This document shows positions 50,779-63,999 of a stretch of DNA of 64,000 bases, piece by piece. Each line of letters opens with the position of its first letter. Positions within the stretch are counted from its first letter, which is position 1. A model generated the notes under the pieces. That model saw only the letters and a list, made by a program, of their open reading frames with translations, made no database searches and was not told the origin of the DNA. The position numbers and the translations under genes are program-made. Source of the stretch: Schmidtea polychroa. Taxonomy: Eukaryota. The stretch covers positions 62,186,001 to 62,250,000 of the forward strand of contig CM097885.1 in NCBI GenBank assembly GCA_044892525.1, written 5' to 3'.

Positions 50779-53700
50779 CTATATACGTGAGCTTGGAGGG
50801 CGCTGAGCATTCCAGGCCTCCACCCACTGTTCCTGCTTGATATTACTTGGTCGTTTTACACGATGTTGAAAATTTCTTATTCTGGCCATCTCTAGTTCTC
50901 CGCGATGCCGTCTATCTTTGATTATTTTTATTGTCCCCCCCGTTATGATTAAAAAGGCCCCTGTTATTATTATGCCGCTGATCCACATCATCTGTTTTAC
51001 GCTTATAATTTCCGCTTTTTCCTTGTTCATTATTGTTGATATTGCCTCTGTGCTTTTTAGATTACCGTCTTTGCCATTTCCTTTTATCATTCCTCGTATT
51101 CTTGCTATTTCCTCGTTCATACCTTCCTTTGCCATTCTTTGTATTTTCTCCATCTCTTCCTCTGATACATAATTGTCCTGATATTTCTCACTGGTTTTCT
51201 TGCGTTTTCCTTGCTCATCTTTTTCCTCATTGAATTTTCTTTTCCTCCCTCTTTTCCCAGGGTATCGTCGACATTCTCTTTCTGGACCGTTTCTCAGGAT
51301 ACAGACCGTATATTCCTTTGGTGGTTGTTGTTGCGTTACATATTGTAGACAATTTTCTCCTGGTCCTAGCCTTGAAATACACACTTTGTGCTCTTTTCTT
51401 GGTTGAAGCTGTGTTATCACTATTTCACCTCCTTTACTCAGGTGTACCTCTTTCCATTTGACTTTTGTTTTCTTCTTCCCGTTTCGATGTTGGTACGCTT
51501 CTTGTATTCCCACTTCCGTTATTGGTTCTGCATCTTCATTTTTTAACACTAGTCTCTGATAAGCTCTAGACATACATCTTCCTAATATACACCTTTCTTT
51601 TAAATCCCATTCCTCTTTTAGATCCCATTGCTGCTCTTGTACTTGTTTTTTCTTTTCTTGTTTTAGTTCTTCCTCTTTGTTGTCCTTATTTTCCGTTTCT
51701 TTGGCTTCTTTTATCGTTCTCATTCCTCCCTGGGCTGTTATCATTTCCACCATTGTTAATACGAGTATCATTATCATCATATTTGTCTCCATTTCTTTGT
51801 TGGTAAAAAGTAGGCATACCCTCTGTTTTCCACTATTCGTCTTTTCTTCTTGCTTCATTCGGTTTCCCGGGTTATTTTCCTCTTTTTTCATACTCGCGTC
51901 GTTATTTTCTTGATTATTCTCCTCTGATTTCTCTTTCTCTTTATTTCCGTTTCGACCTTTTTCATTATTATCGTCGTCTTTATCGTCTTTATCTCCCCCG
52001 CTATCGTTTAAAATGTCGTCCTCGACATTTATATCATTCAACAATCTGCGGTATGCCGTTAGCACTCTGTTTCTTGCTAATTTTGCTTCGAATTCAAACT
52101 CCTTTCTGCCTGTTGCTGCATGTCTCTTTCTATTCCATTCTTTTACCAGTTCTCTCAATTGTATACGGCGATGTTTTCCGATTCGCTTTTGTTCGTTTAG
52201 ATTTTGCGTGAATTTGAGGTCTTCTCTGTTCAATACGATCATTATGATTTTCGGAGTTCCTCCTTTTGTTAGTGTATTTTTAACCATAGCATTTTCTCCG
52301 TTTTCGTAGAACTCATTTATATTTATTGCATATTTATTGCTTTGCGGTATTTTCCATGTTAGCAATAACTTCATGGCTTCTAGGCTCACCCGTATCGTGT
52401 TCCATTGGAACTGTGACGTGTTTTTACAGATATTTTCTACCTCAGTTCTTGTAGCATTTTTACAAATGAATCTAATCATTTCCAAGTTTGGTTGTATTGT
52501 TGCCCAATCCATGGTAGAATTTCCTTCGTTTGATATTTCGTCAAGTCTCGAACCTGATTGATGTAGTATATGTAAGGTTTTCGGGTGTATCTTTGTTATT
52601 GCTGCATACATCATTGCTGTTTCTCCTTGTTCATTTTTTGCATTAGATTCTTCTCCGAAGTCTCTAAGAATTCTTATGATGGTTATTGCTCTGTTTTCTT
52701 TTGCTGCTAAAATGGCTTGTTGTAATGGTGTTCTTGAATCTTTTGTTGGTAAGGTGAATGCTAGTGGTATAAATGTTTTTATTTTTTCTATGTCTAGATT
52801 TGTGGTCTGGTCTCTCGCGTAGGTGTGTACTGTTTTTGTTATTTTTGCTAGTATCGCTTCATCGGATAGATCTTGCATTTCTTCAAAGAATACTTCTTTA
52901 GCCTTACGTATTACTATCTCTTGGTCGGAGTTTATTATCTTTGGTTTACTTGTTGTTGCTATATCGCTTATTATTTGATCGACTCGTTTCTCAGACTCTC
53001 TTGCTGTTATTTTCTTGATTTTTATCTTTTTCTTGTTCGAACTGTTAATGCGTTCCTCTGCCGTTAGAACTTGAATAATACTTAGGTAGTTTTCTCGAAT
53101 GTTATTCATAGTTTCCATCATATATAATACACTCACGGTTTCCCAAAATTTTACTTGTACTTTATCGGTAAATTGAGATATAGCTTTTTCGAAGTTGGTA
53201 ATTCGTTTTCTGATTAGTTGTTCGTCTTTGTGATTTGAAAACTTTATGCCACGTTGTAGTAGTTGATTTGGAATTTCGAATAGGTGATGTCCTCTCATCG
53301 CTTCTCTCATCAAAGTGTTTTCTCCTTTGGTGAATGTTTCGTTTATATCTACCATATAATCGTTTTTGATCGGGTTCCTCCATGCAATTAGTAATCCCGT
53401 AATTATTATTAATTTCTCTTTGATCGCAGTTAATAACCCGTCATACATGTTTCCTATCTCCCTATTATCCTCGTATGACAATAGATCCACTAAGATTATG
53501 AATGCTTCAGTGCTCTTTCCTTCGATTGCATGATGTAGTGCGTTTTTCTGGTTGTGATCTTGTGTGGTTATCTTTGACCCAGTTTCAAGTAATGCGATAA
53601 TAATATCTTTAGCTTTATCCCGATTGGCTGCTATCATTAGTGGAGTGTAACCTTGGTTGTTTTCTTGATCCGTCGAAATGTTACAGTCGCGAAATGCTTC

Positions 53701-63999: not shown

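Follow-up and report, generated by a model that had tools for sequence, protein, structure and literature searches.

The window analysed here, a stretch of 64,000 nucleotides of Schmidtea polychroa (GenBank assembly GCA_044892525.1, contig CM097885.1, positions 62,186,001 to 62,250,000), holds from position 41406 to beyond its end a giant gypsy long terminal repeat (LTR) retroelement of the Burro type, in a copy that was inserted recently. The Burro assignment follows the published description of these elements (PMC6431247). A planarian host is indicated by the architecture and by the expanded TRAFs. Together with two neighbouring 10-kb stretches (L016/L017), the window yielded an element of 30.6 kb, whose window coordinates all refer to the minus strand. 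The 3' LTR (41406..45659, ~4.25 kb) has TG...CA ends and a twin beyond the window end. The two LTRs were 99.46% identical across 4,261 nt (window versus L016/L017), and the element is flanked by a 4-bp target duplication, ATAA. After the 5' LTR (L016/L017) lies a primer-binding site that we take to resemble the 3' end of tRNA-Pro.

The polyprotein is represented in the window by two open reading frames (ORFs) sharing one frame, 61405-63999 (864 amino acids (aa), open at the window end) and 50779-61404 (3,541 aa), separated by a stop codon at 61405..61407. The frame was open at this position in 8/8 fetched copies, each of which carried a single polyprotein of 4,724-4,811 aa; the stop is therefore a private break of the window copy, and programmed read-through was rejected. 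From its N-terminal side the polyprotein encodes three Gag CCHC zinc knuckles (63745..63900, with the remaining gag past the window end), three helical+Ubl units, a Bcl-2-fold domain (predicted), an env-like glycoprotein, an aspartic protease (PR; 57184..57459, Pfam RVP), a reverse transcriptase (RT; YIDD) with RNase H (RH; 55468..56520, Pfam RVT_1 and RT_RNaseH), an integrase (IN; 54016..55359, Pfam H2C2 and rve, with limits drawn from a repeated putative protease-site motif), two ankyrin blocks and a C-terminal part with membrane-protein features. Accessory ORFs, one of them a TRAF, follow downstream. The element is multicopy and actively copying: the 781-Mb genome holds 679 candidate places for the Bcl-2 segment, and ~65 of the 150 that were scored lay, by hand count, within frames of at least 4,700 aa. 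Contigs from four sequencing runs, which were only guessed to be RNA, covered 30/30, 25/30, 12/30 and 3/30 bins, and transcription is not thereby shown. Genome searches with Pfam Bcl-2, env and MATH, together with fetched stretches, recovered four further families (B, C, D and E) besides the window family (A).

The initial annotation had described one retroelement that assembles a kit for modulating cell death and NF-kB, comprising CARD-like, Bcl-2-like, ankyrin and TRAF parts, at 52470..62345. All strings quoted in it were located on the minus strand where it had placed them, IEPHIIRAGGWKRL beginning at 60015 and LRRNLDKL at 62334, and three of its four domain calls hold. The presence of a predicted Bcl-2 fold, ankyrins and a TRAF in one retroelement was borne out by Pfam, profile and fold model.

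The Bcl-2-fold domain occupies 59965..60363. As a single sequence, this segment gave a weak Pfam match (13 bits against a cut-off of 31.4; E 0.16), phmmer against PDB returned no Bcl-2 match, and an ESM Atlas search gave nothing useful. A profile built from retroelement sequences only backed the Bcl-2 identity, and the predicted model, an eight-helix Bcl-2 fold with 6-16% identity to viral Bcl-2 homologues, supports the domain call; the Bcl-2 and Ubl folds are both predictions. The BH2 motif W/I-x3-GGW is retained, with I128, G132, G133 and W134 invariant in 14/14 element domains. Other Bcl-2 genes were seen in the genome. Polinton/Maverick-like elements (L057:350-6106, L058, L059, L060; C1), with frames resembling by eye integrase, packaging ATPase, PolB-like and TBP-like proteins, carry a dispersed multicopy Bcl-2 gene, one of which groups with a host gene (L029) outside the retroelement clade. 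Seven near-identical host Bcl-xL-like genes lie within ~0.9 Mb (L018-L024, C4).

Two clusters of about three ankyrin repeats had been proposed and were confirmed (Pfam Ank_2, E 4.8e-16), each with a degenerate fourth repeat (53325 and 52299). Block 1 spans 53200..53955 (core repeats ~53769-53455; motifs at 53763, 53652 and 53547) and block 2 spans 52180..52929 (core repeats ~52740-52435; motifs at 52734, 52626 and 52524). The clusters are one duplicated block of ~250 aa (score 162, where 200 shuffles reached 61 at most); in family D the block is single, and ankyrins gave no tblastn or Pfam match in the parts of B, C and E examined. Matches in PDB were generic, with no IkB in the best 60 of 148 rows. 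Each block has 3-4 repeats, whereas IkB-like or poxviral ANK-PRANC proteins have six or more, or a C-terminal PRANC/F-box, and no Pfam PRANC match was obtained. For S. mediterranea, PMC13563047 reports seven RHD genes, all divergent, and no clear homolog of NF-kB, which makes NF-kB a poor target; the modulation of NF-kB proposed earlier found no specific support in these data. A Pfam RHD search of the genome gave 0 candidates but had no positive control, and absence is not thereby shown.

A full-length TRAF accessory ORF with RING, zinc fingers, coiled coil and C-terminal MATH was found at 48773..50212; the TRAF had been called correctly but lies outside the interval first assigned to the kit. 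Pfam matched MATH at 88 bits and the RING. Similarity was to TRAF3/TRAF2 (E 4e-28; MATH closest to TRAF3/2), with a RING region like that of TRAF6/5, and the frame was intact in 7/8 fetched copies. In a 35-row MATH tree, which covered element copies together with only the 30 best-scoring loci and in which long branches meet, the TRAF ORFs of families A and D and the in-frame MATH of D formed one group (97/86), adjoining four single-frame host TRAFs. As judged from trees with long branches, a single origin was shown for the element TRAF cargo and likewise for the element Bcl-2 cargo. No BIR was detected by Pfam in the eight searched frames of the window element, nor in the upstream RING ORF. 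The latter (L016:2845-3339, just past the window end) encodes an IAP-type RING without BIR, and the same ORF occurs in family D. A genome search for MATH gave 1,484 candidates, and most of the best 150 lay inside polyprotein frames of family D, many of them 4,791 aa long. Many genomic MATH/TRAF matches are element polyproteins, which bears on the planarian TRAF expansion that has been reported (PMC6109357): element copies may inflate it.

The segment first called CARD-like is, on the structural model, the helical half of a repeated helical+Ubl unit. Unit 1 lies at 62440..62847; unit 2 comprises this helical half (62134..62382, five predicted helices) and Ubl domain 2 (61876..62133); unit 3 lies at 60985..61404. 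Had the segment been a CARD, it might have served as a decoy of caspase-9/Apaf-1, with IkB-like ankyrins blocking NF-kB, in stem cells. A short motif likeness to caspase-9 is in keeping with this proposal, as is the helical and conserved nature of the segment (dN 0.033), and a profile of unit 2 only (four rows) placed two host CARDs at ranks 12 and 34 among 891 pieces, before pieces of the TFIIS N-terminal domain (TND), at noise-level scores. Pfam CARD had no match on the segment at E<=5, nor anywhere in the polyprotein, and a genome-wide CARD search gave 4 matches among 7 candidates, 0 of them in a long element frame. Alignment of the segment to host CARDs with hhalign gave P 0.16-0.52, and its NWDLL is YINRL in family D. 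A CARD has six helices in about 90 residues; the unit-2 model has five, followed by Ubl where CARD helices 5-6 would stand. An ESM Atlas search with the segment returned no named family, two word-index protein searches with the helical+Ubl unit found no relative, and in fold searches with the unit model the Ubl half supplied all matches.

The stem-cell setting is disfavoured. After smedwi-2 RNA interference (RNAi), BURRO1 was derepressed in differentiated gut and epidermal cells, and it was seen in neoblasts only under triple-PIWI knockdown (PMC8532177); stem cells are consequently a poor setting, and the blocking of NF-kB meets the lack of a clear homolog in S. mediterranea noted above. We regard the decoy as very improbable, and the CARD call is not supported. 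A profile of the helical-unit family matched MED26 (E 0.003) and LEDGF IBD (E 0.25-1.7), a helical-only profile from a poorer alignment matched neither TND nor CARD, and Pfam Med26 found 35 places in the genome, with 0 in a long element frame. A TFIIS-N-like identity for the helical half of unit 2 is a weak lead suggested by profile similarity. IWS1-like TND genes form an expanded cluster of >12 copies (L143-L156; C2, C31).

Selection was assessed segment by segment between the window copy and four copies of a second subfamily. Nonsynonymous divergence (dN) was 0.044 for Bcl-2, 0.033 for helical unit 2, 0.10 and 0.065 for the ankyrins, 0.18 for the TRAF parts and 0.011 for RT, and synonymous divergence (dS) was 0.7-2.8 or saturated across the compared segments. 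The ratio dN/dS was 0.01-0.10 in the 18/29 segments for which it was computable, with synonymous saturation elsewhere. Because dN lies far below dS, the cargo is kept by selection, in agreement with the earlier view that it matters to the element. A segment between PR and RT, at the dUTPase-like position of Burro, is conserved and had no Pfam match. If the cargo were neutral host sequence carried by a large element, its accessory domains would be free to diverge faster than RT, as they do (in comparison with family D, 28-46% identity for these domains and 93% for RT). The dN/dS values and the synonymous saturation largely refute this explanation; retention of the domain across families with RT-RH only 50% identical also speaks against it, and we give it next to no credence.

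The env-like fusion glycoprotein (58060..59796; Pfam Monjiviricetes_fusion, E 8e-72) lies in frame between Bcl-2 and protease, and a hydropathy scan placed its transmembrane helix at P0002 1097-1115. The stretch 59797..59859 is likely the env signal helix, and we propose that it anchors the Bcl-2 module in the membrane; in relatives, the Pfam env model begins at the matching stretch, and in the window copy the helix stays below the 1.6 hydropathy threshold. The C-terminal part of the polyprotein (50782..51810) matched no family above cut-off. Its hydrophobic start, ectodomain-like region and transmembrane helix, with hydropathy peaks at P0002 3209-3227 and 3469-3487, indicate that it is likely a second membrane protein, which could be a receptor-binding partner of env. 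The polyproteins of families B-E end alike in beta-rich, possibly FN3-like regions that matched no family above cut-off. Among the remaining frames, a 128-aa accessory ORF (50251..50637) was found in 8/8 fetched copies. Three further accessory ORFs of 164, 254 and 347 aa (45917..48560) are charged and likely coiled-coil, with no Pfam family above cut-off; the 254- and 347-aa frames have counterparts with 34% identity in the sister family D. A 252-aa frame within the LTR (41937..42695) had no Pfam family.

Family D (35 kb; 4,791 aa) is Burro1-like, carries an in-frame MATH, a TRAF ORF and a BIR-RING ORF, and has RT-RH 90% identical to that of the window copy. Families B (13 kb; 3,053-aa frame; L088-L091), C (18 kb; 3,334 aa; L126-L129) and E (14.5 kb; only two broken copies seen; L130-L131) are smaller Burro relatives with gag-Ubl-Bcl-2-env-pol in one frame and RT-RH identity of ~50%. 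A downstream 722-aa ORF of family B resembles a DEDDh exonuclease by eye and had no Pfam match. In a more far-reaching scenario, which we consider unlikely, the Bcl-2-env fusion founded a wider enveloped gypsy clade of which the Burros are an inflated branch. The env signal helix would then double as a viral Bcl-2 tail anchor, tying death suppression one-to-one to the fusogen, and the helical+Ubl units (LEDGF-IBD/MED26-like) would act as TFIIS-N recruiters of host elongation factors or of the element's own integrase.

With regard to function, we favour, with somewhat better than even confidence, a role in which the Bcl-2-fold, ankyrin and TRAF cargo would dampen death signalling and ubiquitin-dependent stress signalling, so that the producing cell survives while element RNA and a likely fusogenic envelope are made. 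The element protease would cut at a repeated R-[IV]-[NC]-[ML]-[ML] motif, found at six places in the polyprotein, and signal peptidase would cut before env. These cuts would release Gag, env and the enzymes, together with a Ubl/Bcl-2 piece, an ankyrin protein and a membrane protein from the C-terminal part. The Ubl/Bcl-2 piece would retain the env signal helix as an endoplasmic reticulum (ER)-membrane anchor, comparable to the tail anchor found in cellular Bcl-2 proteins; this step is soft, because the helix is under the hydropathy threshold. The Bcl-2 fold would restrain mitochondrial death, which has been reported in planarians (PMC8998228), or it would engage signalling adaptors. In host TRAF/TBK1/MAPK signalling, and not on a classical NF-kB, the element's TRAF and its IAP-type RING would work as adaptors or as E3 ligases; loss of a host TRAF has been reported to increase cell death (PMC7586133).

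Several observations weigh against this role. The BH1 motif NWGR was kept in 0/15 element Bcl-2 domains and is DDEH in the window family, so a classical BH3-binding groove is doubtful. The fold check named in the initial annotation produced a Bcl-2 model, yet its Foldseek E-values were all >0.001. The hydropathy scan did not flag the signal helix, which lies ~40 residues past the Bcl-2 fold, and the protease sites are a guess from the motif. The window copy is interrupted by the stop at 61405-61407 and one just past the window end, and therefore cannot make the whole polyprotein alone. BURRO1 RNAi left the smedwi-2 phenotype unchanged (PMC8532177). When the Bcl-2 domain was modelled in complex with a BH3-like peptide of the host, the prediction scored 0.01, which weighs neither for nor against binding. 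The missing NWGR fits a second explanation, in which the Bcl-2 fold has no affinity for BH3 motifs and has been repurposed as a scaffold, either for env biogenesis or particle assembly (tethering to the membrane in a matrix-like way) or for the binding of signalling adaptors. Poxviral A46, A52, B14 and K7 are Bcl-2-fold proteins that bind signalling adaptors. We hold this scaffold explanation to be a serious but less probable alternative to protection of the producing cell.

Elsewhere in the window, a decayed second LTR element with gag and protease remains lies on the plus strand at 17823-19851, after a repeat region of 14-bp units. Remains of hAT and Tigger/pogo DNA transposons lie at 32910-33380 and 36741-38190, diverged copies (70-90% alike) of a GC-richer repeat carrying unassigned ORFs at 5400-7200, 9400-10100, 26000-27400 and 35100-36500, and a tandem array with a 63-bp unit at 21267-21959.

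Burro/GYPSM1 elements are known as giant planarian LTR retroelements of the gypsy type (Jurka 2007; Grohme et al. 2018; as in PMC6431247), with a described architecture of gag, Ubl, BCL2, in-frame env, PR-RT-RH-IN, ankyrins, MATH/TRAF and BIR, and a proposed meddling with apoptosis and ubiquitination (PMC6431247). As this kit is already published, our finding is mostly a rediscovery. New are the support for the Bcl-2 fold, the removal of the CARD and a wider and older Bcl-2-env fusion; the extended data of Grohme 2018 may hold some of the domain details. The question of Burro versus host apoptosis and ubiquitination is sharpened by the domain boundaries, the fold prediction and the missing NWGR, and by 13-18-kb families that retain only Bcl-2 and env. 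Like Burro, the window element exceeds 30 kb, has many copies and encodes a ~4,800-4,900-aa polyprotein with three CCHC knuckles, Ubl, a BCL2-like domain, env in frame between BCL2 and PR, PR-RT-RH-IN, ankyrins and MATH/TRAF cargo. Unlike Burro, the window family lacks an in-frame MATH and a BIR (family D has both), its ankyrin block is duplicated, and its TRAF is a full-length downstream ORF; an element of D. tigrina also carries MATH as an accessory ORF (PMC6431247).

The element TRAF has the same RING, zinc fingers, coiled coil and MATH as cellular TRAF2/3/5 and planarian single-exon TRAFs, but is element-borne, exists in many copies and shares 35-41% identity with the closest of the sampled host MATH domains. 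The helical unit resembles the TFIIS N-terminal domain family (MED26, LEDGF/p75 IBD, IWS1) in its final helix, but lacks the T/S-x-IG motif and is always fused to Ubl. The closest counterparts of the short, parasite-borne ankyrin arrays are poxvirus ANK/PRANC proteins, IkB and the planarian nidovirus PSCNV, whose ANK domain has three repeats in ~100 aa (PMC6211748); the element ankyrins differ from ANK/PRANC and IkB in having 3-4 repeats per block and no PRANC match. Viral Bcl-2 proteins (ASFV A179L, EBV BHRF1, myxoma M11L; vaccinia A52, N1, A46 and B14) share with the element a parasite-borne eight-helix fold, which in the element is predicted, lies in a retroelement polyprotein fused to env and lacks NWGR. 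Anakin, a chuvirus-env LTR element (PMC12440569), is likewise an LTR retroelement with a captured glycoprotein of negative-strand-virus type, whereas in the window element env stands in frame between gag and pol, after the predicted Bcl-2 fold.
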